A stretch of DNA of 64,000 bases, taken from a virus (lineage: Duplodnaviria; Caudoviricetes). A model generated the notes under the pieces. The model did no database searches. It saw only the letters and a list, made by a program, of their open reading frames with translations, and was not told where the DNA came from. The translations under genes were made by a program, and so were the position numbers. Shown piece after piece: positions 26,977 through 45,396 of the stretch. Where the stretch lies: IMG/VR virus record IMGVR_UViG_3300012979_000004, positions 1 to 64,000 of that record. One strand, written 5' to 3'. Within the stretch, counting starts at the first letter, position 1. Each line of letters opens with the position of its first letter.

Positions 26977-27016
26977 TCCTTAATGGCATACACTTAAGTT
27001 CGAGTCTTAAGAAGGA
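26977..27016 (+). ncRNA. Mini tRNA-like element (acceptor stem and T arm only)
   Basis: TCCTT-AATGGCATACA-CTTAAG-TTCGAGT-CTTAAG-AAGGA. Confidence 0.5.
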
Positions 27017-27095
27017 ACGGCGTTATAAAAGCAGTTGAGTGAAAGCCTCAACACGAGTTAATTAACATTTTTATTACATCTTAAATTTATCAAAA

Positions 27096-27611
27096 ATGAA
27101 AAGATTAAAAGATTTTATCACAATGCTTGTACTTAGCACTATTGTACTTGCAACAGGGTTTGTGAGTTCTTGTACTGACTACTGCACTCCAAACAAAAGT
27201 GAAGTAGAAACACAAGTAAAAAATGCCTTGCCTAACGCTTTGTCAGAAGTGTTACCAGACATGCTAGAAGAACTAAGCACACCTAAGTTTTATGATTCGA
27301 TTGATGCCATTGTATACAAAATGGAACGATCGAAACGGGCTGCAGACGATTCTATATTCTTAAGTTTGCCGGATGAAACAATTGCAAACATCTCACATGT
27401 ATTAGTAAATTATCAAAAAACATGTACTGTATCAGATATAGTAAATGAATATACTGAATATAAACACATTTATGATAATTTACCACAAGAGATGTATCGA
27501 ACTTTGAATGAACCGTCAACAATGCCGAAGCAAATACTGCAAGTAGACGATACGTTGAACAAATCTAAATCAGAATCGTATGCAAACAAGGGCGATAGTA
27601 CTGGTCTATAA
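27096..27611 (+). CDS. Putative lipoprotein
   Basis: Signal peptide ending FVSSC. Confidence 0.65.
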   Translation: MKRLKDFITMLVLSTIVLATGFVSSCTDYCTPNKSEVETQVKNALPNALSEVLPDMLEELSTPKFYDSIDAIVYKMERSKRAADDSIFLSLPDETIANISHVLVNYQKTCTVSDIVNEYTEYKHIYDNLPQEMYRTLNEPSTMPKQILQVDDTLNKSKSESYANKGDSTGL

Positions 27612-28032
27612 AGGCAGTGAAATTCAATCAGACGATAAGTATCGTTTGATACAATGTTTAGCAAACGCAAACATTATTACAGACGGTAGTGTGACAACGT
27701 ACACTTTGTCAGAAGAAGATCTTATAAAAGCATCTGTAAAAGAGGTGTTAGACAATAGGCTCAACACAAGCATGAGTGAAAAAGAGATTTTGCAAAAGGC
27801 TGCAAATTTCATAATGACAAAGTATCCTAAAAGTGTACAGAGTAGTGGAGCACACTTGATAGTGCAAATAATATCGGATATTCACAACAACAATGATGAT
27901 GCAGAAATGCTTAAACAGTCCATAATCGCACTATCTGAGTATCCAGACGAGGCATTTATTATCAGCAATAAAATAATGCCGAAAAACGTGTTGACAACTA
28001 TTAAACTTATTTACACCAATCATCTCGTATAG
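27580..28032 (+). CDS. Hypothetical protein; TAG stop
   Basis: 150-aa ORF. Confidence 0.7.
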   Translation: MQTRAIVLVYKGSEIQSDDKYRLIQCLANANIITDGSVTTYTLSEEDLIKASVKEVLDNRLNTSMSEKEILQKAANFIMTKYPKSVQSSGAHLIVQIISDIHNNNDDAEMLKQSIIALSEYPDEAFIISNKIMPKNVLTTIKLIYTNHLV

Positions 28033-28122
28033 TCATGTGTAAAACTTATAGAAAAGAACGAGACTTGTACGAGGGTCAGAAAACAAAAAAAGCTCCATAT
28101 AAAAGACAAAAATACAAATATT

Positions 28123-28311
28123 GTGAATATGAGCGAAATCAAAATCTATAAACGATTGAATGACGGAAATCGAGGATCTCTTTTAACGACGATTAAGTAT
28201 CCAACAAAAGATGCTGCCGACTTAGCAAAACAGTCTTTAATACATCTTTGTAAGAATCAATATCGTTTTAAAAAAGAATGGTCCATGAAAAATGTCATCA
28301 TCGTGGGTTAA
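28123..28311 (+). CDS. Hypothetical protein
   Basis: 62-aa ORF. Confidence 0.5.
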   Translation: MNMSEIKIYKRLNDGNRGSLLTTIKYPTKDAADLAKQSLIHLCKNQYRFKKEWSMKNVIIVG

Positions 28312-28348
28312 TTAACATTTTTATTCATTACCAAAAATTATCAAAATT

Positions 28349-28954
28349 ATGGCAAAAGAAAAGAAAGACGTAGCAGTAGCTACTGAAGTACAGAGCACAT
28401 CTGCAGAAAACATCCGTGAGCAGCTTGACAACGCAAGCATGGGTCGTGTAGAACTTGCAAAAGCAGCACTCGAAAAGATCAGCAAAGATCGTGATGAGAG
28501 AACTCAGAAAGAAATGATGGTACGCTTCCAGAAGGCGCAGTATCGCATCGATCAGGGTTATCTCAACCTTCGCAGAGAGCGCGACATCGCAAAGATTACA
28601 CAGGCTGAACTTGCTCACACAGACCGACTCGCACGTTATCTTATGGGCTTCGAAGTCACCGAAGAAAAGATCAAGCACATCATAAAGACACCAGATGTGA
28701 TCTTCGAAAAGGAAACAGTCGATGAGAAGAACAAGACTGTGACGGTTGTATTGACCGACGGTGAGAAGAAGACATTCAAGGTAGGCGAACAGGTTCCGCC
28801 AATCATCGACTATGTCGATTATGATAGCCTCTATACAAAGATTCGTGATTACACGAGAAAAGAATCCGACAAGATCGAAAAGGAGCACAGCAACTATACT
28901 AAGAAGCTCCAAGCTAAGTATGGAGAGTATTGGAACCATTCTTGGTACTATTAA
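28349..28954 (+). CDS. Hypothetical coiled-coil protein
   Basis: 201-aa ORF with AT-rich leader. Confidence 0.8.
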   Translation: MAKEKKDVAVATEVQSTSAENIREQLDNASMGRVELAKAALEKISKDRDERTQKEMMVRFQKAQYRIDQGYLNLRRERDIAKITQAELAHTDRLARYLMGFEVTEEKIKHIIKTPDVIFEKETVDEKNKTVTVVLTDGEKKTFKVGEQVPPIIDYVDYDSLYTKIRDYTRKESDKIEKEHSNYTKKLQAKYGEYWNHSWYY

Positions 28955-28957
28955 TTT

Positions 28958-29291
28958 AGCGACAGGAAACTATATCTAAAGCGCAGAATCTTAGAATCAG
29001 TCGTTTGTAATGTAAGATAAATCGCATCAGAGGGCATGGGGCCGAGTATCCGAATTTTCTTACAGATAGTTGAATCAACAACATCGGCATCGAGTCACTG
29101 AACCATATGTCGAGGATGTATACTCTCTGATCTCACGGAGTATAAACTATGAGACCATTTGATCAAACCAAAGAAAATATGAGAATCTTAGAATCTGTTT
29201 TGAAATAAATTGAAAAATATTAGATTCAAAACACATGTTTTCATCAAAAATGCGAATACACCTATTACAGAATCTTAGAATCAGCTAATAG
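28958..29291 (+). repeat. Array of hairpins with repeated loop AGAATCTTAGAATC
   Basis: Exact copies at 28985, 29182 and 29269 and a variant GAGTCACTGAACC at 29092, each inside a different stem. Confidence 0.7.
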
Positions 29292-29442
29292 TCACTGTAT
29301 TATTAACAATAGCCAAAAACGCTCTGTATTGCGATATATTTGACGGTATGAAGTAGCTACCACACCAGATAAGAAATCACCACACAGAGCCAAATAAAGG
29401 CTATTTAGAGCATAATCTGATCAATTATGTTTCTATCGAAGT

Positions 29443-29650
29443 TCTAGCTTGTGTGAAATAAACTATTCGGACGAGGGGGCAGTACCCTCGCGGTCCACAA
29501 AGAAAGAATGTAAGATTTTGGGCCGCAAATAGTGTTTGACGGGTAGTGGATATAAACACGTTAAGCTATTACATAAATCTAACTGGCAATTCTTATATTG
29601 CTGACTACACTAAGCTGGCAGCTTAATGGTTCTCTAATTGAGATTTAAGT
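29443..29650 (+). ncRNA. ssrA: Circularly permuted (two-piece) tmRNA; outer ends approximate
   Basis: Acceptor piece first (GAGGG-GGCAGTA-CCCTC-GCGGTCC-A, ends 29497), 22-nt spacer, then coding piece GGGCCGC (29520) giving G3-U70. Tag GGC..GCA GCT TAA at 29585-29626. Confidence 0.88.
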
Positions 29651-29676
29651 CACGTGCTAACTACGAAAGTGAGGAC

Positions 29677-29735
29677 GGAGATAACTAAGTTTAACGTTAA
29701 CTGGAGTTTTGGCGGTTCGAATCCGCCAATCTCCG
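29677..29735 (+). ncRNA. D-armless tRNA-like element directly after the tmRNA
   Basis: GGAGAT...TGGCGG-TTCGAAT-CCGCCA-ATCTCC-G. Confidence 0.6.
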
Positions 29736-29746
29736 CATCTACAAAA

Positions 29747-30217
29747 ATGAAAAAAGGTGGATATAAAGAAATGCTAAGAGATCGCTGTCCAAGGACAGTA
29801 TCTGCAGCACTAATATGGTGTAAAGCAAAACAAAGATGGATAGACCATGTCTACGACAACTTTGTAAGATTCTTAATGTACGATAAAAAAGCTAAAGATC
29901 AACAAGTTAGAACCTTGTTAGGACTTAGTAAAAATAATCGTAACATGGAATTCAACAGCACCATAAATTGGGAAGATCTTTCAAAAGAAGAAAAAGAATA
30001 CTGGGAATCTGTTTCAAAATGGGTAAAATGGTTCGAAAAAAATATAATAATTATTGCAGAATTATACACCCACTATTACATAACAGTTCATGGTAAATTC
30101 AGCAATGATTTTGTAAAAAACCGTATAATAAATACGGCATTTACAAACATTGATAAAAGTCTTCATGAAAAGCTTTATAAATATACAATAGAACACATTA
30201 AAAAATATTATGTATAG
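29747..30217 (+). CDS. Hypothetical protein; TAG stop
   Basis: Likely start MKKGGYKEML after the RNA element. Confidence 0.7.
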   Translation: MKKGGYKEMLRDRCPRTVSAALIWCKAKQRWIDHVYDNFVRFLMYDKKAKDQQVRTLLGLSKNNRNMEFNSTINWEDLSKEEKEYWESVSKWVKWFEKNIIIIAELYTHYYITVHGKFSNDFVKNRIINTAFTNIDKSLHEKLYKYTIEHIKKYYV

Positions 30218-30665
30218 TGTATTTTCCCAACAATTGATTGAACATTGGTGTAATGTGTACAAAGCACAACATCGATGTAAAGACGTACCAACGGAAATCA
30301 TACCATCTATAGAAGAAATATTGATGGAAAAACCAAGCATGATACCATGTGTCATGTATTGTAACGTGATTTCAACTTTAGACTATATTGCGGAAGAAGC
30401 AATTTATACATATTGTACTAAAAGTGAAGTAAGAAAAGTAGGGGAATGGATTCACAAGAATTTAGTAATAGAGATGCCAAACATGAAAAACCGTAAAACG
30501 GTTGATGTTAAGCTTCGAATTGCTGTAGACATGTTGAATAAACTAGAATATAATGGTATAATAACAAAAGATATAAACTTGTTTTACTTTCACAATATAG
30601 TAACAAATCTCTTAGATCTATGGGTATGTATACATTTGGCACAATATGACGAATTACCTTTCTAA
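30210..30665 (+). CDS. Hypothetical protein ending YDELPF
   Basis: 151-aa ORF. Confidence 0.7.
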   Translation: MYSVFSQQLIEHWCNVYKAQHRCKDVPTEIIPSIEEILMEKPSMIPCVMYCNVISTLDYIAEEAIYTYCTKSEVRKVGEWIHKNLVIEMPNMKNRKTVDVKLRIAVDMLNKLEYNGIITKDINLFYFHNIVTNLLDLWVCIHLAQYDELPF

Positions 30666-30672
30666 GAGATAT

Positions 30673-30757
30673 ACCAAGATGTCGGAATTGGTATACGAGA
30701 CAGACTTAAACTCTGTTGGTCATATCGACCGTGTGGGTTCGAGTCCCATTCTTGGTA
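30673..30757 (+). tRNA. tRNA-Leu(UAA)
   Basis: Cloverleaf with long variable arm; anticodon loop CT-TAA-AC. Confidence 0.9.
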
Positions 30758-30816
30758 CAGCGGCTAACATCCGTTACGCGAGTGACACGCTAATAACTGT
30801 TAAAAACTTAAAGCTT

Positions 30817-31377
30817 ATGAAAAACCCTAAAATTACTCCAGAAGAAATTAAGGTTATCAAAGCTGCACAAAATGGAAGCATACCAGCTTTCAATTGTATA
30901 TTTAAAAGATACAAATCGTTTGTAAGCAATATATTATATGGCTACATTAAAGATAAAGATGAAGCTGATGATATAACAAATATTGTATTTTTAAAAGTAT
31001 ACGATAAACTACAGAAATTCACAGCCTATGACTCTTTCGGAGGATGGTTGAGAATTATAGCTAATAATACAGCTGTAGATTATTTACGTAGAACAAAACA
31101 CACACCTATTGTGATTGATAATGTAGATGTCCGACTAACATCTTCAAGATCAATTAGTTCAGATGAAAACGACATTGTCAACCGTTTAACATATGAACAG
31201 ATACTCAAAGAGTTTAACGCCCTCTCTGAGCAAGCACAAAAAGTATGTGAATTGTTTTATATAGATAATATGACATCTGAAAAAATTAGCGAAGTGTTGC
31301 AAATACCAATAGGTACAGTGAAATCACATTTATCTAGGTCACGCAACAAATTACGTAAACAATTTAAAACAATTTAA
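30817..31377 (+). CDS. ECF-type sigma-70 factor
   Basis: Region 2 DEADDITNIVFLKVY...FGGWLRIIANNTAVDYLR; region 4 EKISEVLQIPIGTVKSHLSR. Confidence 0.9.
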   Translation: MKNPKITPEEIKVIKAAQNGSIPAFNCIFKRYKSFVSNILYGYIKDKDEADDITNIVFLKVYDKLQKFTAYDSFGGWLRIIANNTAVDYLRRTKHTPIVIDNVDVRLTSSRSISSDENDIVNRLTYEQILKEFNALSEQAQKVCELFYIDNMTSEKISEVLQIPIGTVKSHLSRSRNKLRKQFKTI

Positions 31378-31379
31378 CT

Positions 31380-31751
31380 ATGGTCTTAACTTGGTTAATA
31401 GTAGGTTTAGCCATCGCTGTAGCGATAGCACGAATCAACCAGAGCAACAAATTGTTCTGGGCTGCATTCACATCTTTGATGTTAGGAATTGCAGTAGGGT
31501 CGTTAATCAACCGAGTGGATCAGGATGAAGAGAGCCTCACACAAGTGTGCCCCACACAGATGGTAGTTGAAACACCAAGCTGTTATAGCTTTTTGGCAGA
31601 TGTTCCAACTACAACCCAGAGCTTTGTGCCAAACACTGTGAGTAAGGATTCCACACTTATAATAAGTGAGGTAACCTCTCTTCACAAAGAGCCATTTAAG
31701 AAAACTCTTACAGATCCACCAGATTGTAAAAACACACTAAAAACAGATTAA
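31380..31751 (+). CDS. Two-TM membrane protein following the sigma gene
   Basis: Two hydrophobic N-terminal helices. Confidence 0.7.
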   Translation: MVLTWLIVGLAIAVAIARINQSNKLFWAAFTSLMLGIAVGSLINRVDQDEESLTQVCPTQMVVETPSCYSFLADVPTTTQSFVPNTVSKDSTLIISEVTSLHKEPFKKTLTDPPDCKNTLKTD

Positions 31752-31789
31752 ACAAACATAGTATTAACTTTTATAAATCCGTAATCAAT

Positions 31790-33169
31790 ATGGGTAAGAA
31801 TAAAACAAAAGGAGCAGTACCTCCAGCACCAAAAGAAGAAAAACCAAAAGTAATCGAGCCAGAAGTAATTGAGACTAAGAAGACTCGTCCAATTAACGTA
31901 ATTGATGCTGACAAGTTGGCAGAAATGAAGCCTATGCCAGGATTGAGTCCAGACAGCATGGTAAACGTAATAAACGGGTTGGATCGTCATTTTATGCAGC
32001 CAAGTGCAGCAGAGAAACTTGGTCTTACACAGGAAACTGTAGACAAGATAAACTCATTCTCAGCACACGCATGGGTAGCAATCGCAACAACAGAAGTGAT
32101 GTTTGGAACAAGCCAGTTTGCACAGACTATTAGACTGTCTCAACTACCAGGTGTTACAGAAGCTGCTAGAAGCATGGGTATCATTATCGACCAGAAAGCT
32201 CTTCCGGCACCGAATGAAGAAGGCCTCATTCAGATTCCTTCCACAGCAATAAAGCCTTCAAAAGAAGCAAAAGAAGCTTTGGAAAAGGAGCATGCAATTC
32301 TTGTAAAGAAGCCAGAAGTAGATCCAAATAGTATTAAAGACGAAAATGGATTGAAGGATGCATTATCATTCATCATGGCAGATCGTGCTAACACAATCGA
32401 CAAGATTGCAGACAGTATCGCATTCTACAAGTCTTATCTGAAGATTCAGGCAGAAAAGTCTGAAAACGCAGAAGAAGAAAAGAAGCGCATTGACGAAATG
32501 AACAATGTTGAAACTCTCAACAAGATTCGTAACATTGTAAAGGAATGTCCTCTTGTCTTATCAGGAATCGGTCGTTCAATGAGCACCTTTGTTGGGAGTT
32601 CCAAAAGTCCTGTTTCAGCATTCTGTATGTTGCGTAACTCCGCTAAGAATCGAAAGACAGGCGAGTATCGTCTTACAGATCGAGAAATTGCAGATTATAC
32701 GCAGATTCTTGTTTCTTGGGCAAATGATTTGAAGATTGCTGACTATAAGAAGCATATTGAAAATCATGAAAAGAACCTTAAGGAGCTTTCTAAGAACAAG
32801 AAAGATAACGCTAAAGGTATCGAAGATGTAAAAGAAAAGATTGAATCTTGTAAAGCTTCTATTAAGCACCTTGAAGAGGTTACAGAAACAATTTTCAATT
32901 CGTCTTCAGATTTCGTAGACGCTCTTCTTGAAAAGTACGCAGAAAAGGACCGACTTGCTACAACAACGTTCAAACACGTACTCGAAGGTTACTATGCTGA
33001 CGTAGATGTAGAAAAGACACCTATCGATACAATCAAGCATAATGTAAAACAGCGTGCAGGTATCATTACAAATTTGTTCCGCAATCCAAGTACACCTATT
33101 ATGGAGTACAGCGAGGCAAACCTTGTAGATGTAACTAAAGTAAAGGAGGACGAAGACTCAAAAAAATAA
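31790..33169 (+). CDS. Hypothetical protein (459 aa)
   Basis: Long intact ORF with coiled-coil segments. Confidence 0.85.
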   Translation: MGKNKTKGAVPPAPKEEKPKVIEPEVIETKKTRPINVIDADKLAEMKPMPGLSPDSMVNVINGLDRHFMQPSAAEKLGLTQETVDKINSFSAHAWVAIATTEVMFGTSQFAQTIRLSQLPGVTEAARSMGIIIDQKALPAPNEEGLIQIPSTAIKPSKEAKEALEKEHAILVKKPEVDPNSIKDENGLKDALSFIMADRANTIDKIADSIAFYKSYLKIQAEKSENAEEEKKRIDEMNNVETLNKIRNIVKECPLVLSGIGRSMSTFVGSSKSPVSAFCMLRNSAKNRKTGEYRLTDREIADYTQILVSWANDLKIADYKKHIENHEKNLKELSKNKKDNAKGIEDVKEKIESCKASIKHLEEVTETIFNSSSDFVDALLEKYAEKDRLATTTFKHVLEGYYADVDVEKTPIDTIKHNVKQRAGIITNLFRNPSTPIMEYSEANLVDVTKVKEDEDSKK

Positions 33170-33260
33170 CCACCACACATAAGCGTTCGTTGTTAAACAG
33201 AATAATCACAAAAGTGAAGACTATGTTTTAACTTATGTGTGGATAAAACGCATAATCAAT

Positions 33261-33731
33261 ATGGCAAAGAAAATAACAACGATCATTTGCTGCATTGCAT
33301 TTACGATTGGAGGATATTTTATATCTTCTATGAATAACGCCAGCTTAACAATCAATAATGCAAAGACAGCAACAGCTGCACCACTGCCACAGGCAGTGAT
33401 ACAGTATCCGAAAGATCTTTTATTAGGTCATACGAACGATGTGGGTCTTATTACAGTCCGTGACACAATCCGTGACACAATTCCACTAGAAATACGTCAT
33501 GATACAATAACAAAGACAAAATACGTAACAAAGTGGAAAACAAAAATAGAATATGTACGAGATACATGTTTTATTGAACAACCAATGGACACCCTATGTG
33601 ATTCGTCACATATGTGTAATGTTGTAGACACAGTTCCAAAAATACAACCAATAGACACTGTGTATGTAACAAAACCAACGTTGGTTATTCCAATACTAGA
33701 ATCTAATGATTCAACAACCGTATCGCTTTAA
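33261..33731 (+). CDS. Secreted or membrane-anchored protein with DT-rich repeats
   Basis: Signal-like N-terminus; VRDTIRDTI, HDTI, DTVYV. Confidence 0.7.
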   Translation: MAKKITTIICCIAFTIGGYFISSMNNASLTINNAKTATAAPLPQAVIQYPKDLLLGHTNDVGLITVRDTIRDTIPLEIRHDTITKTKYVTKWKTKIEYVRDTCFIEQPMDTLCDSSHMCNVVDTVPKIQPIDTVYVTKPTLVIPILESNDSTTVSL

Positions 33732-35850
33732 AGGGTCTCATTAGCCCTTGATACAAATCGCTATCTTATTGTAGTTCGACTCTGCACACCCCACAACTTA
33801 TAGCACGGCGTAATATTCTTTACGCTGTGCTATCTTTAACAAGGGGTGCCGGGAAGATAGCACCTTATACTTGATCCGAGAATATGTATATCTCCACTGG
33901 AGACGAATAGCTTGAAAATAGAGCTACAAAAGGTAGGATGGAAGACACTGAGGCGTGAAGAACCTCTTTGTATTAGGGAGAGCGTTGTATACAAACCCTA
34001 TTCTGATATATGAGAACCGTCTGGTGATATATTCAAGAGAAGACGCATAAGACTCAAAAGGAGCAAAACTGTAAACCGTATCGGACATGTTATATCGATG
34101 TGCATAGATGTAATATAACGAAACACGAGCTGAAACATACTTAAACCAAGACCCAAGTAGAGAAGGATGGAAGGAGTCCATTCACATATCTGAATAGAGG
34201 AACAGTTACCAAAATAAGTATGATGTACAAATTATAGCTGTATCACAGTGTTTGCGAGGTCCAAACTCGTTATAAAGGTGAGACATAAGTTGTGAATAAA
34301 CATTAATGCAGATTCAGATTAGTTCTAACTGAATGCGTACCGTAACTACGTAGCCTAGGTAAGTCCAAACTGGTGCAAATCCAGTGCCTCTCGTTGCCAC
34401 GCGAAGGGGAGTAAGAGGGTAATACGGCTGATTTAATGTGAATAGCAGACCGCCAGGCTTTACTCGTTTATGCGGTTATATAAAAGTAAATGAGTAGGAA
34501 AACGATGCAGGTTTTCATGCGGAACGAGCCCGCGTTCAAAGGCTGATTCAAATACAGCAAATTAGGTAAGCGTAATCTTGTTGTATACGGTAGATTGGAC
34601 AAAAACCAATCGCCCTTAGGTGACCACTATACAGTCAAAAACAATAATTATTTATGCGGATATTATTTGTCTCCACACCCGGTGGATAACACAACTATAT
34701 CTACATTGCAGATTTAGTAAGTACCTTTGAAGGGTTTCAATTATAACCATACATTATGTCCTCTATGGAGTAGTAAGCCAGCATGATATAATTGGTGTTA
34801 TGATTTTTAACCAAAAATACTTCAAATGAAAGCGAAGATTGAATAAAGAATTTAAAAACATGTTTAACAAAATTAGGTGTCCCCTGATAGGGAAAAACTT
34901 ACGTTGTAAGTAAGCAGTACTGAAGTCAGAAACCTGAGTGCCAACCGTAACTCTGAAAAAATTAGACAGAATGCGAAACGAAATGAAGCGTGAGCCAGCA
35001 AGCAGCGTGGATGGAAAGCATAGAGTCGTATACGTCAAAATCGATGGGCAGCTAATCGTAGCCATTAGACGCAGTGCTTGTAGCGTATGCAGGTAATCAC
35101 TATCGCCTGTCTCGCGATGTGTGATAAGCAAGATTAGTGGGTGACAAGAAAATAGACGTATGGGTTGAATTCCCGAGTGTTCGTGCACTATAAACAAAGA
35201 GATGTTTTAGTAAGGTTTATCTCATGACACGAAATAAAACCCCCGTAAGGTCGCAAACAATAGTTGAGAAGAGTTCTGGAGCTCCTAGATCGTTCGATAA
35301 TGAAGCGTACTCCTCACGCAAGCACCCAAAAGCATAAAAAGTTAGGAAACGAGGCCCGTAAGCCAGCGCAATAAACTTACGGCACCAGAGTAAACTGCAA
35401 ATCATTTTAGGAAGATACGTCTTTTGTAAACGGGAAAATATCAAAGATATATCAACCAAAGACATACATTTTACATAATATAGGATATCTCAGCTAGTGA
35501 ACCCTCCACGAATCCTGAATCATTAGAGCACTTAGTGGATAAACTATATCGTTTTTAAATTATAAAAAACAAGTTCATGGATCTTAGTATTCGAGTATAC
35601 ATTTCGACATTCAAAGCTTTAAAAAACGCCATAAATTACGGGCCAGGATGATCTTACCAGTAGATCCCCGCTATATTGTCTATACGATGTAGCTATTTTG
35701 TGACGAAAGCGTGTTAACCATTAGAACAACAATCGAAAACATAATAAGTTAAATGAACAAACTATAACATTTATATATACACGCAGAGTGTATTTCAATT
35801 ATAAGTTTAATCTATCGTTGGTGGAATCAACCACGATATCAAAAAGGATA
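33732..35850 (+). ncRNA. Candidate very large structured ncRNA(s)
   Basis: 2.1 kb without a credible gene; many hairpins, T-loop-like motifs and long-range complementary segments. Confidence 0.6.
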
Positions 35851-35855
35851 GAAAA

Positions 35856-36497: not shown

Positions 36498-36499
36498 CT

Positions 36500-37090: not shown

Positions 37091-37191
37091 ATCTGAGGAT
37101 TTAAGACAAATTCCTGAGGGACATGCGTCTATTTGATAAGATGTATAATAGTAAAATCAACATAAGCTGTTGAATTTCTTCAACACGACAT

Positions 37192-37239
37192 AAAACAAAA
37201 GGTAAAGTTGCGTGCGCGCAATCTAGCCTTTTGTTTTTG
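37192..37239 (+). terminator. Intrinsic terminator-like hairpin
   Basis: AAAACAAAAGG...CCTTTTGTTTTT inverted repeat. Confidence 0.5.
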
Positions 37240-37327
37240 CTTATTGATATGTGAATATCATTTAGCAACTGGCAAATGACTACTCGAATTCAACTATAAA
37301 TTTATGTTTAATTTTAATCAAATCTAT

Positions 37328-37876: not shown

Positions 37877-37980
37877 TATCGATATAGTTTGAAGCATGAG
37901 GGCTTTTATGACGGTCGGTTCGTCACAAACTACAAAATACATATTTTCCCACAGTATTAATTCTCTTAAACATAATCAAT

Positions 37981-38523: not shown

Positions 38524-38525
38524 CC

Positions 38526-39074
38526 ATGGGAAAGAAGACCGTAAATAAAAAGCTTAAAAAGAAGCTGAATCGTATACGAAATCAGAAAAACTGTATTCCA
38601 CCTAAAATACAAGCCAATGTTTGGGATATAGATAACGATGGAGTAGAAGCATATCGTAACACACGTCCGTACCAAGAACATGTACCAATAATGGAACGGA
38701 AAGGAAAGTTAAATAAAAAACCTTGGTATATTCTTACTAAAGAAGAACATATCACAATTGACAAATTACGTAAATCTACAAAGATGACACGTGATGATTA
38801 CATTAAAGGGTACATAAAACAAAAAATGGATAAATGGGAGTTAAAACATAAAAAACCACAAGAAAACGATTTATTCTACAATCAAGAACTCCCAAAATGG
38901 ACAAGTGACCGTGAACAACATCACGATAACATAATGTCTATTATATCTAAAAAGTATATAAAACGTTACACAAAACCGTTAATAAATTATGTATTCGACT
39001 CTAAGCATACGTTAAAAAATAATGTAACTAAAAAGCAGGTGAGCACCCGATATGGACTGGGAATAGCTGCATAA
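38526..39074 (+). CDS. Basic protein ending GIAA
   Basis: 182-aa ORF. Confidence 0.75.
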   Translation: MGKKTVNKKLKKKLNRIRNQKNCIPPKIQANVWDIDNDGVEAYRNTRPYQEHVPIMERKGKLNKKPWYILTKEEHITIDKLRKSTKMTRDDYIKGYIKQKMDKWELKHKKPQENDLFYNQELPKWTSDREQHHDNIMSIISKKYIKRYTKPLINYVFDSKHTLKNNVTKKQVSTRYGLGIAA

Positions 39075-39153
39075 TTTATAAAACAAAAAGATTTAATAGT
39101 TTTCCAGGATACCACTGGGCATGTTAAAATATAATCTAGGACACCACTAGATT

Positions 39154-39223
39154 TTGGACATTCTGCTGGTAGAAGTAGTTAAATTTAATTTAACTATGAT
39201 TGGTTCGACTCCGATCTGTCCAA
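39154..39223 (+). ncRNA. Non-canonical tRNA-like cloverleaf with UUA at the loop centre
   Basis: TTGGACA / TTCT-GCTGGT-AGAA / TAGTTAA-ATTTAAT-TTAACTA / GATTGG-TTCGACT-CCGATC / TGTCCAA. Confidence 0.6.
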
Positions 39224-39275
39224 CATATTTATGGTATCTTGCAAAAAATAATAAACAATTTAAAATAATAAAAAG

Positions 39276-39635
39276 ATGAAAAAAACGGAATTACAATTAT
39301 TACTAAAAGATCTTTGCGCAAGAGTACCATATGGCGTAAAGTGCAATGTTGACGGCAGAATAAGACTGTTAACAGGTGTACAATCAGACGGAACATTAAA
39401 GTTTAAAAGTTCAAAATTATCATTTTCGATAAAAGAATGTTGTATAAAACCATATCTATATCCAATAAAAAATATGACAAAAATCGATTTTCTAAAATTT
39501 TGCTCTATAACAGCGGATGATACGATGTTGTTAGTGAAAAAACAAATTGATTTTTTGGAAGAGCACAATTATGATCACGGACATTTGATTGAACACGATT
39601 TGGCGATAGACGCTACAGGTTTAGATGTATACTAA
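39276..39635 (+). CDS. Bacteroidota-phage-type hypothetical protein
   Basis: LLLKDLCARVPYGVKC...IKPYLYP...LIEHDLAIDA. Confidence 0.7.
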   Translation: MKKTELQLLLKDLCARVPYGVKCNVDGRIRLLTGVQSDGTLKFKSSKLSFSIKECCIKPYLYPIKNMTKIDFLKFCSITADDTMLLVKKQIDFLEEHNYDHGHLIEHDLAIDATGLDVY

Positions 39636-39875
39636 AATATGATAACAAATGCGATTGTATTAAATAACACAATACATGTGTTTATAAAAAGTGACTCAAA
39701 TTGTTTAAAGTGTTCATTGCGAAATAAATGTAAGTCTTTTCATGAAGATTCACCATGTATGATATTTGAAGATCATGGGCATTTTGAAATAAAAAAGACT
39801 TGATTTTATCGCAAAATTAAAGTGTAGGGTTTATACATTCCTATAACAAAGTATTAACGCAAAGAACTATAAGTC

Positions 39876-41753
39876 ATGTGTATACGAAATTGTAGGATAG
39901 ACGTCTATGATATAGAAGTTTTTCCAAATGTATTTCACTGTTGTACAAAAAATACCGAAACTGGAGAAATAAGTAAATTTGAAATATCTGAAAGAAAAAA
40001 TCAATTAGATGAATTGGTATCATATTTTACCAATAAAGAATCAAAGATAATCTGCGGATACAACAATCATCATTATGACGATGTTATAATAAATTATATA
40101 ATAGATTATCATTCTAAACTAATTAGATTGCCATACTGGAAGATATGTAAATCTTTATTCGGTTTATCACAAACTATTGTAACAGCAGAAGATGGAGACG
40201 TTGACAGATTTAAAAAATGGAAGTATGCGCATTACTTCTATTCTATAGATTTGTTAACTATGCAATTTAGTTCTAAATTACGAGTAGGTCTAAAAGAACT
40301 TCAATTAACCATGCATTATAAAAATGTGCAGGAATATGAAGGTGATTTTGAAAACAATCTTCCTACAAATGAAATAGACAAAATGATCGCATATAATATA
40401 AACGATGTAAATTCTACAACAGAGCTATTAAACATTCTTAAAAAAGATATAGAATTACGTTTGTTTATATACGATGAATATCACATTGACGCATTGTCGA
40501 TGGATAGTGTTAAGTTTGGAGAAAAACTACTAGCAGAACGTTATTGTGAAAGCGCACGCATACCAATGCGATTGTTAAAGACAATGCGTTCACCAATGGA
40601 CAATATCCCTTTAAAAGATGTTATATTTCCATTTATAGAATATAAAAATCCAAAATTAAAAGACGTTCTCGAAGATATGAAAAGGCAAATAGTATCTTCA
40701 AAAGAACGCAAAGGCTACGAGAAGAAGTTTGTTCTCTCGAACGTGGTGTATTCAATCGGAGTTGGTGGTATACATTCAATACACGATCCAGAAATATTCC
40801 ATCCGGGACCTGACGAGTATATCGGACACAGTGATGTGGCGTCGATGTATCCGAGCTTACTGATAAAGTATGAACTTACTCCCAGACACTTAGGTAAAAC
40901 ATTTTTGAAAGTCTATTCTAAACTATATGAAGAACGAATAGAAGCAAAACATAGCGGACAGAAACTTAAGAATCTTGCCTTAAAATTGACTCTTAACTCT
41001 GTTACGGGGAAAATGCAAGAAGAAACAAGTTGGATGTACGACCCATTTAACGTTTTCAAAATACGTATTAACGGACAGTTGATACTATTGATGTTGGTGG
41101 ATCGTTTGCTGGAACTTAATTGTAAGATTGTACAAGTAAATACAGATGGTGTTGTTTATATCGCTAAGAAAACCGCTTCTGAGGCCATTCAGGGGGCTAT
41201 TTCAGAAGTAGAGCGTATAACACAACTTGTTTTTGAAAGCGACAACTATGAGGCGTTTTATCAATACGCAATCAACGATTATTTTGGAGTTGTTGAGGGT
41301 TATTCGCAATCTAATGACCCTAAATTGATAGAAAAGAAAGGAATGTTTATCACTGAAACAAAAATAGGTAAAGGACTAGCACCGGTTATTATACCTAAAG
41401 CAGTGATTAATTATTTCTTAACAAAACAGCCTGTATCTGAATATATCAGACAGCAGACCGATATAAAAGATTTCTTAATGGCACAAAGAGTCAATAAGAA
41501 ATTCAAAGTCCGACACGGCAATCAATTTGTACAACGTATAAATCGATATTATGCTAGCACAAACGGTTATTCACTTTATAAAGTAGATTCAGACGGTAGT
41601 GAAACAAACATGTTAACTAAATCTGGAGTAACAATACTTAATAAAATGGACGACTTAAATATACAAGACAGGCATATAAATTATAACTATTATATAAGCG
41701 AAGCTAATAAGATAGTATATGATTTAGCTTGTCAACAATTAACTCTATTTTAA
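39876..41753 (+). CDS. DNA polymerase family B
   Basis: Exonuclease motif YDIEVF; polymerase motifs DVASMYPS, KLTLNSVTG, VNTDG. Confidence 0.92.
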   Translation: MCIRNCRIDVYDIEVFPNVFHCCTKNTETGEISKFEISERKNQLDELVSYFTNKESKIICGYNNHHYDDVIINYIIDYHSKLIRLPYWKICKSLFGLSQTIVTAEDGDVDRFKKWKYAHYFYSIDLLTMQFSSKLRVGLKELQLTMHYKNVQEYEGDFENNLPTNEIDKMIAYNINDVNSTTELLNILKKDIELRLFIYDEYHIDALSMDSVKFGEKLLAERYCESARIPMRLLKTMRSPMDNIPLKDVIFPFIEYKNPKLKDVLEDMKRQIVSSKERKGYEKKFVLSNVVYSIGVGGIHSIHDPEIFHPGPDEYIGHSDVASMYPSLLIKYELTPRHLGKTFLKVYSKLYEERIEAKHSGQKLKNLALKLTLNSVTGKMQEETSWMYDPFNVFKIRINGQLILLMLVDRLLELNCKIVQVNTDGVVYIAKKTASEAIQGAISEVERITQLVFESDNYEAFYQYAINDYFGVVEGYSQSNDPKLIEKKGMFITETKIGKGLAPVIIPKAVINYFLTKQPVSEYIRQQTDIKDFLMAQRVNKKFKVRHGNQFVQRINRYYASTNGYSLYKVDSDGSETNMLTKSGVTILNKMDDLNIQDRHINYNYYISEANKIVYDLACQQLTLF

Positions 41754-41784
41754 TAACCAACTTGCTAACCTAAGAGTATAAGAG

Positions 41785-42348
41785 ATGATTATTGAAGTAA
41801 ATACAAAACTCTTGCACATGCAAGAAAACATCAATCTGAATCAACTATTCTTCTTAAGTACTGTATTGGATAAGAATCAAAAAACTAATCAAGACGTCCG
41901 CAAGATTGTCAGCCTAATTAGCGACGACGAAATACAGTATTTAATAAATCAGAATCTAATCTCTTCAACTGTAGAAAGAGATGCTATTATATATCGGCCA
42001 ACAGAAAAATTAACAAATTTCTTAAAGCCATCTAAGACTTATTTTGAAGTCTTTAAAGATATATACCCATCATATGTTACACGACCAGATGGTTCGAAAG
42101 GATACCTACAAACCAATATAAACAAATGTCGTCATTTATTTGATCTGTATACAGGATTAAGTGAAGCGATGGCACAGCATTTAATTGATTGTCTTACATT
42201 TGAGATAAACAAGAAGATGAATACTGGTAAAATAGGATATATGAAAACTATGTATAAATGGTTAATAGAACATCAATGGGAAGAATCTGAAGCGGAAATG
42301 CAAGATGAAAGTAAAACAACATCAGCATATGGAACAGAACTCGTTTAA
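41785..42348 (+). CDS. Replication-associated protein (putative helicase loader or initiator)
   Basis: 187 aa between PolB and DnaB. Confidence 0.55.
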   Translation: MIIEVNTKLLHMQENINLNQLFFLSTVLDKNQKTNQDVRKIVSLISDDEIQYLINQNLISSTVERDAIIYRPTEKLTNFLKPSKTYFEVFKDIYPSYVTRPDGSKGYLQTNINKCRHLFDLYTGLSEAMAQHLIDCLTFEINKKMNTGKIGYMKTMYKWLIEHQWEESEAEMQDESKTTSAYGTELV

Positions 42349-43252
42349 AATAAAATCTATGCGAGACGTGACTCAAGAAGCAATCTCGTATATAGCTGGA
42401 AGAAGAGAACATAATATAGTCTCTTTAAAGACCAGATGGAATAAGTTTAACAAACAGTGTATGGGAGGAATTGAACCAAATACTGTTTATACCATAGCAG
42501 GCATTTCTGGAAGCGGAAAGAGTTCTATTGTAAACTCTATTCAAGTTGATTTAATTGATCTGAATCCTTCAGAAGAGATAATCATTTTATGTTTTTCATT
42601 AGAAATGGTTGGATTTAGGCAGGTCGGAAGAGTACTTTCTAACAGATTAAGAAAGACAACTTCTACCCTGTATAGTGCGGAAACGGACCTCGATGACAAG
42701 ACATTTAAAGAAGTCATCTATGTATCCAATCAGCTAAAGGAATACCCAATCTACTTTGTAGACAATCCCGGTACTCCCAAGCAAACAGAAGAGATTATCA
42801 ATAATTTCTATGAACAGTATGTAAAAAATACAAACAAACATTTTGTAATCACATATGACCATACTCTTTTGACAAAACAAGTTGGATCTATTATAGAAAC
42901 AATTAGTGAATTAGAACGAGTATTTATACAAGCCAAAAAATATCCTTTGACTTCAGTCATACAAATTGCACAAATGAACAGAAACATAGAGCAACCTGAA
43001 CGGATTAACAACCCTTCGTCACACTATCCTATGAGAAGTGACATAAGTTCATCAGACGCTGTGTTTCAAGGTAGCGATTACGTATTTGTAATACACAGAC
43101 CAGAAACATTAGGTATTCAAGAATACGGACCAAGTCATTTGCCAACAGAAAACAAGGTTTATTTACACTTAATGAAAAACAGAGACGCAGGTAAACCTTG
43201 TATACTTGAATTCGAGAACGATCTTGCGTACAATAATATTATTGAAACATAA
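42329..43252 (+). CDS. DnaB-like replicative helicase
   Basis: AGISGSGKS, FSLEM, AQMNR, KNRDAG. Confidence 0.9.
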   Translation: MEQNSFKIKSMRDVTQEAISYIAGRREHNIVSLKTRWNKFNKQCMGGIEPNTVYTIAGISGSGKSSIVNSIQVDLIDLNPSEEIIILCFSLEMVGFRQVGRVLSNRLRKTTSTLYSAETDLDDKTFKEVIYVSNQLKEYPIYFVDNPGTPKQTEEIINNFYEQYVKNTNKHFVITYDHTLLTKQVGSIIETISELERVFIQAKKYPLTSVIQIAQMNRNIEQPERINNPSSHYPMRSDISSSDAVFQGSDYVFVIHRPETLGIQEYGPSHLPTENKVYLHLMKNRDAGKPCILEFENDLAYNNIIET

Positions 43253-43288
43253 GCGTTAAGTATTAACAAAAAAATATTTTGGCTGACT

Positions 43289-43780
43289 ATGACAAAGACA
43301 ACTTTTAAGATTACTAACAATAATTCTAACAACAATACAACATTTCCCATCACAAACTATTCTACGTTGCTTGATAACATTATTGCTACTAATATAGCAA
43401 AGACGAACAAGTATCTGTTTGATGATGGATCTTCGGATTTCTATACATTGTTGTTGAACGACTCTGCAAAGAAGCATACTTGTAATCTGTGTTGCCTCAC
43501 AAACAATAACGATAAGTTTACCAAAGCTGCAAACTTTATTGCTAACTATGGCAAGAATAAGGGTACAAAGCTGCCAATCAGTTTTGGTAAGATTTATAAG
43601 CTGTTAGATGGTACACCCATTGCTTTTTATGAAGATGAAATTCAGATCGGCATGGATTTGTACGCATACAGCGATTTTAAGGACATTACGTTCTTGAATT
43701 CTTTGCCTAAGAAGACAAAGAATATCATCATTAACATCTTCAATGCTAACGCAAAGAACATTGAGATTAACATCAACTAA
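43289..43780 (+). CDS. Hypothetical Asn-rich protein
   Basis: 163-aa ORF. Confidence 0.7.
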   Translation: MTKTTFKITNNNSNNNTTFPITNYSTLLDNIIATNIAKTNKYLFDDGSSDFYTLLLNDSAKKHTCNLCCLTNNNDKFTKAANFIANYGKNKGTKLPISFGKIYKLLDGTPIAFYEDEIQIGMDLYAYSDFKDITFLNSLPKKTKNIIINIFNANAKNIEININ

Positions 43781-43795
43781 AGTCTAAGAACTAAT

Positions 43796-44539
43796 ATGAT
43801 AGTACTACCTACATCTAAAGTCCAAGCAACTTCTACAAATCCGCAATATTTGATTTTATATGGATTGCCAAAAGCCGGTAAGACATCAGCAGTTGCGCAA
43901 CTGGAAAATAATCTTATTGTAGACCTCGAAGGCGGATCCAAATTCATTGACGCACTTGCCGTACAAGCTCGTACAATCAACGATTTAGGAGAAATTGCAC
44001 AAGCCATTAGAGCTAAGAATGCAGAAGTAGGACATAATTTTTATAAACACATTACAATAGACAATGCCACCAGATTAGAAGACATTTGTATGAGCTATGC
44101 ATGTAGTTTGTATCGTAAAACTGAACTAGGGAAGAACTGGAAAGGAGACGATGTAACAACTCTTGCAAGAGGAGCTGGTTATAAATACCTAAGAGATGCC
44201 GTTAAAAAGGTAATCGACATGTTTAAAGAGCTTTGTGATGAATTCATCTTAATTGGACATGTTAAAGATTCTCTAACAGAAAAAGACGGACAAGAAGTTT
44301 CAGCAAAAGAAATAGACCTTGTTGGAAAACTAGGTAAAATCATTTGCGGAATGGCCGATGCTGTTGGATACGTCTATCGAAAAGACAACGAAACACATAT
44401 TAGTTTTAAGTCTGGAGGAGATGGAACAATCATGGAAGCCCGCGCAAGACATATTGCTGGACAAGATGTCGTTATTGCAACTGGAAACCCAGATGGATCT
44501 ATAACAACTCATTGGGAACGTGTTTATAAACCAGAATAA
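43796..44539 (+). CDS. Sak4-like AAA_24 ATPase/recombinase
   Basis: YGLPKAGKT, DLEGGS, ITIDN, ILIGH. Confidence 0.85.
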   Translation: MIVLPTSKVQATSTNPQYLILYGLPKAGKTSAVAQLENNLIVDLEGGSKFIDALAVQARTINDLGEIAQAIRAKNAEVGHNFYKHITIDNATRLEDICMSYACSLYRKTELGKNWKGDDVTTLARGAGYKYLRDAVKKVIDMFKELCDEFILIGHVKDSLTEKDGQEVSAKEIDLVGKLGKIICGMADAVGYVYRKDNETHISFKSGGDGTIMEARARHIAGQDVVIATGNPDGSITTHWERVYKPE

Positions 44540-44564
44540 TAAGAACTAAAAGTCAAAGGAAATT

Positions 44565-45188
44565 ATGTATAGTACAAAAACAGCAACAACAAACAATAAT
44601 GAGTTTAATAGCTCATATATGCCCGTAGGTATCAACGATAACGTAAACTTGAGTGCAGTAAACGTACTTAAATCACAGCAAGGACGTGACTATATTGAGT
44701 TTGTATTTACAAACGAAAATGGTCAAACTGCATCATTTACGGAATGGAAGAATGAGAAAAACATGTGGATCAAAACTGACGAAGATTTACAACGTCGTGA
44801 CGATCAGCAGTTTGGTCGAATTCTTCAAATTATAAACTGTTTTTATGACAAAACTCCAGAATTTGAGGGAGCAAGCTTCTTTGAAATGATCAATTGGGTA
44901 AAGGCAAAACTTGACCAATTTATCAACAGCAACCTTCCTAAAAAGGATTTACGTCTTAAGGTAGTTTATGACAAAAAGGGATATACAAAAGTATCATCTC
45001 TTGGCGTATACGTTGAGCCTATGAGTATAGAAAAGTCTCAAATTAAGCTTTGGAAGAACGATCTTCTTGAGCGACCCGTCGTAGCCGATAAGGAAGACGA
45101 TCCGCTTGTTGCAGCAGCTAATGAAGCATTACTGTTGAACACTCCGGTAAATGAGACAACTACAGGTGCTGACGACCTTCCGTTCTGA
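44565..45188 (+). CDS. Single-stranded DNA-binding protein
   Basis: Follows Sak4; acidic tail ADDLPF. Confidence 0.7.
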   Translation: MYSTKTATTNNNEFNSSYMPVGINDNVNLSAVNVLKSQQGRDYIEFVFTNENGQTASFTEWKNEKNMWIKTDEDLQRRDDQQFGRILQIINCFYDKTPEFEGASFFEMINWVKAKLDQFINSNLPKKDLRLKVVYDKKGYTKVSSLGVYVEPMSIEKSQIKLWKNDLLERPVVADKEDDPLVAAANEALLLNTPVNETTTGADDLPF

Positions 45189-45243
45189 CAATATTTCAGT
45201 AACGACTAATGGTCAGTGGTGGAGGAATCTAGTGATTCCCTGG

Positions 45244-45286
45244 AGCATGTAAGGAACGTTGAGGGGTTCGATTCCCCTCCATGCTA
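45244..45286 (+). ncRNA. Mini tRNA-like element (acceptor stem and T arm)
   Basis: AGCATG-TAAGGAACGTT-GAGGGG-TTCGATT-CCCCTC-CATGCT-A. Confidence 0.6.
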
Positions 45287-45292
45287 CAAATA

Positions 45293-45396
45293 GCGGTGTC
45301 AGGATGTTGTGAAACATATGACAAGATAGGTTTTCTAATTTCAGGCATTTTCGACTCATTTTTCCTATCTGTTTGGTTCGATTCCAAACGACCGCA
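45293..45396 (+). ncRNA. tRNA-like RNA with expanded pyrimidine-rich loop
   Basis: GCGGT/ACCGC-A acceptor; GTTTGG-TTCGATT-CCAAAC T arm; AGATAGG/CCTATCT arm with a ~33-nt loop. Confidence 0.55.

Follow-up and report, generated by a model that had tools for sequence, protein, structure and literature searches.

Compact tRNA-like elements as probable RNase P/RNase Z punctuation signals in a phage of the Suoliviridae

In mitochondrial tRNA punctuation and in bacterial tRNA-mRNA co-transcripts such as the tufB operon, excision of tRNAs by RNase P and RNase Z defines mRNA ends. In the mammalian nuclear RNAs MALAT1 (mascRNA) and MEN-beta, RNase P makes the 3' end of the upstream RNA and a tRNA-like module, with an anticodon loop that is reduced or absent, is released as a small RNA. 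Minihelices consisting of acceptor and T arm serve in the laboratory as model substrates for RNase P, RNase Z and the CCA-adding enzyme. The plant-mitochondrial t-elements are non-canonical tRNA-like folds with the motif GGTTCRANYCC which lie beside mRNA ends. Cleavage by RNase Z and RNase P is believed to be guided by them, as shown for cox1, ccmC and nad6, a task that falls to real tRNAs at other genes (Forner et al. 2007, PMC1920247). No paper describing minihelix punctuation in phages was found. Here we analysed a stretch of 64,000 nucleotides (the window) from the genome of a crAss-like gut phage that carries at least five tRNA-like elements; five of these, el1 to el5, we consider to be probably RNase P/RNase Z punctuation signals, analogous to t-elements and mascRNA.

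The five elements, proposed in an earlier note on this DNA, were all found at their sites (Table 1), and the minimum free energy (MFE) fold of every isolated element was the proposed one (5/5). All are intergenic, in the same orientation as the genes, and lie 10-78 nt 5' of the next start codon. Their common core is a T loop TTCGANT followed by a continuous 3' strand of 12 nt (11 nt in el1) and a discriminator, which is A in four of the five (A or G in the family) and is followed by CA, again in 4/5. The acceptor/T stack comprises 11-13 bp among the five. The linkers retain WWYGG(TA) with its D-loop-like GG, a D-loop remnant. The inserts of el3 are a 5-bp hairpin with a CUGG loop and an arm of 8-10 bp with the apex AUUUAAU, joined with zero connector nucleotides; that of el5 is composed of a 27-nt hairpin with a GG bulge and a GUGA loop, and a 6-bp stem bearing a 35-nt loop. 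These larger inserts are unaccounted for by a pure cut-here role. Fold z-scores ranged from −2.7 to −4.0 for el2 to el5 and reached −0.85 for the AU-rich el1, which is thermodynamically weak (−6.4 kcal/mol) with a stack of only 11 bp.

Table 1. Coordinates of the tRNA-like elements and neighbouring features in the window
Feature	Position	Strand	Description
Strong hairpin	26948..26975	+	Spans stop codon of ORF 26721-26963; abuts el1
el1	26977..27017	+	Minihelix TCCTT / 11-nt AATGGCATACA, containing GG / CTTAAG-TTCGAGT-CTTAAG / AAGGA; split 5/6 (acceptor 5 bp, T arm 6 bp); then A
Permuted (two-piece) tmRNA	29446..29626	+	Tag GNSYIADYTKLAA, then stop; Rfam RF04321, 58.1 bits
Conserved tmRNA 3' block	29651..29674	+	CACGTGCTAACTACGAAAGTGAGG; identical in 17 IMG/VR contigs
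el2	29676..29736	+	tRNA-like module; acceptor 6-7 bp, T arm 6 bp, 27-nt linker forming one composite arm
tRNA-Leu(UAA), canonical	30673..30758	+	About 58 nt 5' of likely sigma-factor start
Orphan T arm	33770..33793	+	TGTAG-TTCGACT-CTGCA + CACCCC-A-CAA; sixth, incomplete member
el3	39154..39224	+	Four-way tRNA-like RNA; acceptor 6-7 bp, T arm 6 bp
Leader	45208..45243	+	Invariant AAN-GGTCAGTGGTGGA + covarying hairpin + CCCTGG; abuts el4, 0 nt gap; not coding
el4	45244..45286	+	Minihelix AGCATG / 11-nt TAAGGAACGTT / GAGGGG-TTCGATT-CCCCTC / CATGCT; split 6/6; then A-CAA
el5	45293..45396	+	tRNA-like RNA; acceptor 5 bp, T arm 6-7 bp, 72-nt insert; then A-CAA
tRNA-Met(CAU), canonical	45593..45667	+	Primase-upstream slot; ARAGORN and Rfam
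Conserved short leader	45668..45695	+	From 3' end of tRNA or tRNA-like element to primase ATG

The T-arm motif GGTTCRANYCC is present in el2 (GGTTCGAATCC), el3 (GGTTCGACTCC) and both el4 and el5 (GGTTCGATTCC), and the T arm of el1 (AGTTCGAGTCT) matches it partially. By fold and T-arm motif the phage elements (el1 in part) therefore resemble t-elements and would be cut in the same manner. They differ in belonging to a phage and not to an organelle, with no common descent, in often being minihelices of 41-43 nt with a GG linker and a strict 12 + A + CA pattern, and in the link of one type to a tmRNA gene. With the minihelix model substrates, el1 and el4 share the 12-bp stack and the T loop, but the natural elements add an 11-nt GG bulge at the helix junction.

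Both strands of the window were scanned for T arms, defined as a TTCRANY loop on a stem of at least 5 bp. Eight were found on the plus strand and two on the minus strand; nine had a directly stacked acceptor stem, compared to a mean of 0.72 and a maximum of 4 in 200 dinucleotide shuffles of the window. Three of these nine are ordinary tRNAs, and one, on the minus strand at 24367-24502, looks like a chance match. The other 36 kb of the genome held no T arm. The expectation that standard tRNA finders would miss the five elements proved right for ARAGORN and Rfam (0/5): ARAGORN called none of them a tRNA, with or without introns allowed, and Rfam gave no match to them at the gathering threshold (RF00005, 29 bits) nor at E up to 10, the sole match nearby being to tRNA-Sec (21 bits, E = 4.2, 45215-45285). 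The elements share with canonical tRNAs the 12-bp acceptor/T stack, the TTCRANY loop and the discriminator; as ARAGORN and Rfam remained silent, a canonical tRNA with full cloverleaf (D arm, anticodon stem of 5 bp, anticodon loop of 7 nt) and a score above the Rfam threshold was ruled out for all five. Neither are they tRNA-Sec or allo-tRNA (8/5 or 9/4, with a 13-bp stack, a long D stem and the anticodon UCA), since 12 nt of stack precede the discriminator and a UCA loop is absent. Intron-containing tRNAs were rejected likewise: with introns of 0-150 nt ARAGORN reported only tRNA-Leu and tRNA-Met between 26 and 46 kb.

The slot upstream of the primase gene was sampled in Suoliviridae relatives through the primase protein, which makes the sample of 74 distinct loci independent of RNA structure. 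In 57/74 a T-arm element ended about 25 nt (16-30) before the primase ATG. Ten loci carried a real tRNA, the identity differing between loci (Met, Leu, Lys, Thr, Trp, Gln), 47 a non-canonical element and two the GGTCAG motif only, with none detected in 15; real tRNAs and tRNA-like elements are thus interchangeable at this position. Acceptor closure of at least 7 bp was seen in 62% versus 10% of controls, and 40 of 55 elements had ACA as nucleotides 13-15 after the T loop. In the alignment of elements with an 11-nt linker, 99% of cells pair (36-55% in the slid-pairing control) and both sides have changed in 10 of 12 pairs, a covariation that represents few independent events because most of these relatives stand close to one another (primase identity 89-99%). 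Within the L034 group the leader between element and primase ATG is 100% identical, and identity drops to about 55% in the sequence 5' of the element.

Elsewhere in the closest relative, G001, the slots of el1 and el3 are occupied by other elements or by tRNA-Met. At the el1 position the arrangement of hairpin plus minihelix is kept with a different sequence, here a 7/5 minihelix with the 7-nt linker GGTTAAA, and the el3 slot harbors tRNA-Met(CAU), as it does in G002; a homologue of el3 itself was not found in IMG/VR. The orphan T arm at 33770 has an orthologue in G001 with a fully changed T stem (GCGGGG/CCCCGC) and TCTCCC-A-CAA. In the window, no 5' acceptor strand to pair with its 3' strand occurs inside 1.5 kb, so that it is not a possible RNase P substrate as drawn. 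Orthologues of el4 have a 30-nt hairpin (L005, L009, L028) or 10 nt (L050) in place of the 11-nt linker, and the L005 orthologue of el5 retains the helices with a diverged 35-nt loop. From these comparisons the bottom halves appear to vary freely. Structural conservation in related phages was thus present, with structure-preserving substitutions. Two statements of the earlier note have to be narrowed. Its stem split of about 6/6 describes the five elements of the window and fails for the wider family, in which many relatives split 7/5; the split is therefore not family-defining, and the constant feature is the 12-nt stack that the note had given as a total of about 12 bp, followed by A or G and usually CA. 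The description of the stem sequences as unrelated holds within the window, but for el4 and el5 the closest relative has clear orthologues.

The second slot, that of el2, was sampled via the conserved 24-mer next to the tmRNA. A permuted tmRNA was found in five of five tested contigs bearing this block, and a tRNA-like element starts 1-2 nt 3' of it in all 18 contigs (el2 begins 1 nt past it). Four unrelated designs can be told apart among the modules, their acceptor stems differing throughout; none is called a tRNA, and the composite arm seen in el2 differs in each. We rejected the assignment of el2 to the tRNA-like domain of the tmRNA. Both combine an acceptor stem and a T arm with a D-loop analogue and lack an anticodon arm, but the domain maps separately (ARAGORN, 29462-29498 and 29520-29547) and contains G3-U70. 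The acceptor stem of such a domain is formed with the tmRNA 5' end, whereas that of el2 (CGGAGAT/ATCTCCG) pairs within the module and lacks a G-U at position 3. As with mascRNA, the module in this slot directly abuts the 3' end of a non-coding RNA, at a position conserved in 18/18; the upstream RNA differs in being the coding piece of a phage two-piece tmRNA, from which the module would be cleaved.

Given their siting between genes or behind a tmRNA gene, in slots of real tRNAs, the elements most likely mark cut sites for the host's tRNA-trimming enzymes. On the comparative evidence, which is strong, we favor the interpretation that they are tRNA-derived 'top-half' mimics acting in cis on phage RNA. 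We infer that they are transcribed within longer RNAs and cut by host enzymes. The mimics would keep only the parts recognized by host RNase P, RNase Z and the CCA-adding enzyme, namely the 12-layer acceptor/T coaxial stack, the canonical T loop, the D-loop-like GG that can close the elbow, and the discriminator. An RNase P cut at the 5' edge of the element would give the upstream RNA a defined 3' end, often just past a protective hairpin; in the case of el2 this end would be that of the tmRNA coding piece. An RNase Z cut after the discriminator would leave a short defined leader on the downstream message. As in mitochondrial punctuation and the tufB operon, tRNA-shaped units lie between genes; the units there are functional tRNAs, whereas most phage units cannot decode.

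Once released and CCA-tailed, the mini-RNAs might in addition be functional products in trans, either sponges and decoys or carriers of payload loops (el5, el3). Targets could be the CCA-adding enzyme or tRNA toxins of the nucleotidyltransferase or pyrophosphokinase type that act on the acceptor end or the elbow. Such a role is compatible with punctuation and would add to it, and it would suit the elaborate stable inserts of el3 and el5, unnecessary for a cut signal, the conservation of the el5 helices in L005 and the retained GG/T-loop elbow. We nevertheless consider it unlikely, as the payloads lack conservation (a divergent el5 loop, no homologue of el3, and an el2 arm that varies per design) and the neighboring genes show no evident partner protein. 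Without an anticodon-like arm, el1 and el4 cannot mimic the targets of anticodon nucleases. The earlier note had offered processing signals or decoys for tRNA-targeting defence enzymes; context and comparison (intergenic siting, tRNA slots, tmRNA 3' end) agree with the former, and the latter found no support.

The element slots are hot spots of tRNA turnover, and some elements may therefore be decaying tRNA genes. That all are functionless remnants of rapid gain and loss at recombination hot spots would fit the real tRNAs that relatives carry in the same slots, the appearance of el4, which looks as if the 63-nt L005 form had undergone a deletion, and the sequence identity that stops exactly at the element 5' edge. 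Decay should not, however, keep the 12-nt stack, T loop, GG and A-CA while stem sequences change freely, nor a tRNA-like module of four designs at a fixed offset behind 18/18 tmRNA genes, and the orthologues of el1 and of the 33770 element retain the fold with different sequences. This explanation is accordingly improbable for the elements as a whole.

It is highly doubtful that el3, and possibly el2, is an unusual decoding tRNA with anticodon UUA, reading UAA/UAG in the TAG-recoded late phase. The apex loop AUUUAAU does place U33 and A37 around UUA, ARAGORN in mitochondrial mode calls el3 and el2 tRNA(tta), and the 8-bp arm on a connector-less junction would approximate the canonical distance from junction to anticodon; TAG is a sense codon here, with 74 TAGs in one ORF of 6227 codons. 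But the minus strand encodes, at about 16504-16578, a conventional amber suppressor tRNA(CUA) with orthologues in G001 and G003, so that an extra suppressor is unneeded, and TAA is not recoded. Moreover, the el2 arm is unconserved in G001 and the other designs, el3 offers no homologue for checking loop conservation, and its MFE fold closes the arm to a 3-nt loop. Action as DNA, for example as sites of recombination or integration or as signals for replication close to the primase gene, is very unlikely as well: homology breakpoints fall on element edges and one cluster adjoins replication genes, but the elements are confined to the gene strand, their borders lack target-site duplications, compensatory changes maintain an RNA-type fold including G-U pairs, and other copies adjoin unrelated genes and a tmRNA.

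Extending punctuation by top-half mimics to a modular RNA-processing grammar of the Suoliviridae is speculative, and we give it a low probability. In this view the mimics would define the ends of mRNAs for early and replication functions as well as the 3' end of the two-piece tmRNA; once cut out and CCA-tailed, the mini-RNAs would go on to work in trans. Possible means would be a 35-nt loop of el5 that evolves fast, display of UUA by el3, and base pairing between the invariant leader GGUCAGUGGUGGA and 3' ends of the form ...UCC-A-CCA, which together would tune or protect translation during the switch into the TAG-recoded late phase.

The crAss-like phages rank with the most abundant human gut viruses and, to our knowledge, almost nothing is known about their transcript maturation. 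A T loop followed by 12 nt, A and CA, with the acceptor closed at any distance, is a practical search descriptor that finds elements missed by tRNA finders and Rfam. If RNase P and RNase Z do cut the elements, the phage would rely at defined sites on the tRNA-processing enzymes of its host for gene expression, many intergenic regions now taken for empty would consist of functional RNA, and the odd tRNA 'pseudogenes' of annotation pipelines would be explained. The fixed tRNA-like module behind the two-piece tmRNA would represent a new route to a tmRNA 3' end.

All five tRNA-like elements (el1 to el5, see table) were present where the earlier note had placed them, and each, taken in isolation, folded exactly as proposed. 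Both strands of the window and the genome outside it (36 kb) were scanned for T arms combining a TTCRANY loop with a stem of 5 bp or more. The plus strand of the window had eight, namely the two real tRNAs, el1 to el5 and an additional one at 33770; the minus strand had two, and the genome outside the window had none. Nine of the window T arms carried an acceptor stem stacked directly on them, as compared to a mean of 0.72 and a maximum of 4 in 200 dinucleotide shuffles. As had been anticipated, standard tRNA finders missed the elements: none was called by ARAGORN in default or intron mode, or by Rfam up to E = 10. Intron-containing tRNAs were not found in the ARAGORN intron mode.

Coordinates of the tRNA-like elements and associated RNA features in the window
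Feature	Position	Strand	Description
el1	26977-27017	+	tRNA-like element
el2	29676-29736	+	tRNA-like element
el3	39154-39224	+	tRNA-like element
el4	45244-45286	+	tRNA-like element
el5	45293-45396	+	tRNA-like element
Incomplete sixth member	33770-33793	+	T arm, 3' acceptor-like strand and A-CAA, without 5' strand
tRNA-like domain of tmRNA	29462-29498 and 29520-29547		carries G3-U70
Leader before el4	45208-45243	+	AAN-GGTCAGTGGTGGA motif
tRNA-Met(CAU)	45593-45667		
Primase leader	45668-45695		highly conserved
Amber suppressor tRNA(CUA)	~16504-16578	-	anticodon loop CTCTAAC
tRNA(ACA)	16766-16844	-	called Cys by ARAGORN; Rfam 36 bits
Type III hammerhead ribozyme	23317-23375	+	49.7 bits, over Rfam gathering score

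The whole genome measures 99,927 bp, of which the window covers the first 64 kb, and is that of a crAss-like phage whose nearest named relatives are the Suoliviridae/Oafivirinae cr130_1, cr272_1, cr124_1 and Bohxovirus. Its plus-strand block between 25 and 47 kb codes for an ECF-type sigma factor, a DnaB-like helicase, a RecA-like ATPase and the primase. The late genes on the minus strand read TAG as sense, one frame of 6227 codons containing 74 TAGs. Standard tools detected tRNA-Leu(UAA), tRNA-Met(CAU), an odd minus-strand tRNA(ACA), a permuted tmRNA and the hammerhead, the latter being a further self-processing RNA upstream of the studied region on the same strand as the elements. The suppressor tRNA(CUA), orthologous to the tRNA(CUA) of the relatives G001 and G003, was missed by ARAGORN and Rfam in the window genome, probably due to its weak T arm with the loop TCCGATT. 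The tRNA with the unusual anticodon ACA sits about 190 nt from it. The tRNA-Met aligned over its full length with tRNA-Asn(GUU) of the closest relative (L005, 2248-2322), with acceptor and D arm in common, which looks like an anticodon switch (remoulding) at one slot.

In the window and in about 100 related loci, the invariant core consisted of the T loop and a continuous 3' strand of 12 nt, made up of the 3' halves of the T stem and of the acceptor, followed by a discriminator, mostly A, and by CA. At the primase slot, just upstream of the primase ATG, ACA occupied positions 13-15 past the T loop in 40 of 55 distinct elements. This 3' context is common to the elements, the phage's real tRNAs and the tmRNA. 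The proposed division into stems of about 6/6 bp applied to the five window elements but not to the family; since relatives often split 7/5, it is a habit local to the window and not the rule. Short linkers and the beginnings of long ones kept WWYGG(TA) (AATGGCATACA, TAAGGAACGTT, TTTGGAACAAG, AATGGTTTTA, TATGGTA...), a remnant of the D loop; its pairing with the T loop, and with it an elbow, may still be possible. The minihelices were ruled out as AlaRS substrates, as they are devoid of the G3-U70 pair.

For the primase slot, 80 loci were collected via the primase protein, so that the sample was independent of RNA structure. In 57 of 74 non-identical regions a T-arm element ended 16-30 nt upstream of the primase ATG and was followed by a conserved short leader. 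Only 10 of these elements were tRNAs according to ARAGORN (Met, Leu, Lys, Thr, Trp and Gln); the Rfam tRNA model accepted a few more and rejected most. The acceptor was closed over 7 bp or more in 62% of them; when the 3' strand was shuffled as a control, this was the case in 10%. In the lineage of L004 and L034-L066 the element is a 6/6 minihelix of 42 nt, its linker measuring 11 nt, in which every substitution preserved the structure. When these minihelices were aligned with el1 and el4, which had been picked for their structure, 99% of the cells were paired (36-55% in slid controls) and both sides had changed in 10 of 12 pairs, the genomes being closely related. Between lineages, homology broke off precisely at the element's 5' border, and element, leader and primase gene moved as a unit. 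A covariance model (R1) built from the 11-nt-linker elements fitted a single lineage too closely and detected other designs weakly, at 17-27 bits; a structural descriptor script was used in its place.

The conservation of the primase leader extended to the equivalent 25 nt of L005-L070, many relatives having CAATACAAAAGAGCTTATAAGCC-ATG. The core of this leader, a short palindrome in which lineages differ symmetrically (GCTTATAAGC, ACTTATAAGT, AGCTTAAGCT), may serve as an operator or form a small hairpin. A similar AAGCTT-ATG is located ahead of the likely sigma-factor start at ~30817.

In the leader before el4, the invariant AAN-GGTCAGTGGTGGA is followed first by a hairpin of varying sequence that shows compensatory changes, and next by CCC(C)T(GG) or CCCCTAACAA. 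The motif recurred in L005 (1611 and 1763) and in roughly 40 of the 80 primase loci. It was invariably oriented like the genes and placed between the gp05-like ORF and the array of tRNA-like elements. Often a tRNA or tRNA-like element starts right behind it, with a gap of 0 nt, as at el4, the L006 tRNA at 2139 and the L005 tRNA at 1644. In L022, L064 and L068 it immediately preceded the primase leader, and no T-arm element was detected there. The leader had no Rfam match. A coding role for GGTCAGTGGTGGA (peptide NGQWW) was rejected, the frame being closed 0-4 codons upstream in several loci, with no consistent start codon; many IMG/VR matches to a 16-mer of the motif were chance occurrences inside unrelated coding sequences. 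We infer that UGGUGGA of the GGUCAGUGGUGGA leader is complementary to a mature ...UCC-A-CCA 3' end.

G001, the closest relative, was compared as a whole genome. Its el1 slot contained a different minihelix (7/5, linker GGTTAAA); as at el1, a strong hairpin spanning the stop codon upstream lay directly ahead of it. The el3 slot was occupied by tRNA-Met and another element in G001 and likewise by tRNA-Met in the relative G002; a pattern scan for el3 homologues yielded unrelated matches only. Sequence orthologues exist for el4 and el5. At el4, L005, L009 and L028 have a linker of 30 nt that forms a hairpin, and L050 has one of 10 nt; the el5 orthologue kept all helices with a diverged 35-nt loop. 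As linkers and loops changed with the folds kept, the acceptor/T stack is constrained and the linker or arms inserted within the element are not.

The incomplete member at 33770 opens a gene-poor stretch (33.7-35.8 kb), and a conserved hairpin (GTATCGCT..AGGGTCTCATTAGCCCT..GATAC) lies ahead of it. G001 has a T arm at the same position, its stem sequence being entirely different. No distant 5' acceptor strand was found within 1.5 kb. In the window genome, a GGGGTG some 70 nt further downstream is complementary to its CACCCC, and the two can form a stem that encloses a strong terminator-like hairpin.

Protein searches with the ORFs at 27096-27611 and 29747-30217 found no orthologues of el1 and el2, which were compared instead through a DNA pattern from the tmRNA block and the whole genomes of three relatives. 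El2 is not the tRNA-like domain of the tmRNA, which lies elsewhere (table). A 24-nt block closes the tmRNA region, and el2 begins 1 nt past it. The exact block was present in 17 IMG/VR contigs, all 17 with a tRNA-like element 1-2 nt after it. Four unrelated designs, with wholly different acceptor stems, were found there: the el2 type of the window, one with a normal D arm whose anticodon arm is replaced by a mere 4-bp/4-nt stub, one split 7/6 and having a linker of 18 nt, and one with a 20-nt linker. All five block contigs tested had a permuted tmRNA, and none of the five modules was called a tRNA. A fixed offset together with free sequence is as would be expected of a structure-specific cut site. 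At mascRNA, RNase P makes the 3' end of the RNA upstream, to which the arrangement of tmRNA block and el2, with its predicted cleavage, would be parallel. In IMG/VR contigs of related phages (L106-L122), permuted tmRNAs encode differing tags (GNNFVTDYTQLAVA, GNINVNDYTKLAA and ANYESEDYLVE, each followed by a stop); the two-piece tmRNA is therefore recurrent in this phage group.

RNase P, RNase Z and the CCA-adding enzyme accept acceptor/T minihelices, and the features kept in the elements are their known determinants. The elements are intergenic, on the gene strand, 10-78 nt ahead of the next start codon, and in relatives their slots can be taken by real tRNAs of any identity. We therefore interpret them as punctuation signals at which RNase P and RNase Z would cleave. 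RNase P would set the 3' end of the upstream RNA, either an mRNA with a terminal hairpin or the tmRNA coding piece, and RNase Z the short 5' leader of the downstream gene. Plant-mitochondrial t-elements are thought to work as such punctuation (PMC1920247), by the same scheme as predicted here.

In addition to punctuation, the released RNAs, especially el3 and el5, may act in trans. A decoding tRNA(tta) is suggested for el3 by its apex loop AUUUAAU, and the mitochondrial mode of ARAGORN calls both el3 and el2 so; however, the phage already has a conventional suppressor tRNA(CUA), TAA is not recoded, and the el2 arm is not conserved. The same ARAGORN-missed tRNA(CUA) weakens the case for el5 or el3 as a "missing" amber suppressor. 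Pure decay of tRNA genes would leave unexplained the 12-nt strand with A and CA, the kept GG and the tRNA-like module at 18 of 18 tmRNA genes. Decoys for anticodon nucleases, as had also been suggested, are impossible for el1 and el4 because these have no anticodon arm.

Punctuation by tRNA-like structures is known from organelles and MALAT1. A literature search for tRNA-like punctuation in phages or beside tmRNA, and for Crassvirales tmRNA, found no description, although such absence is not proof.
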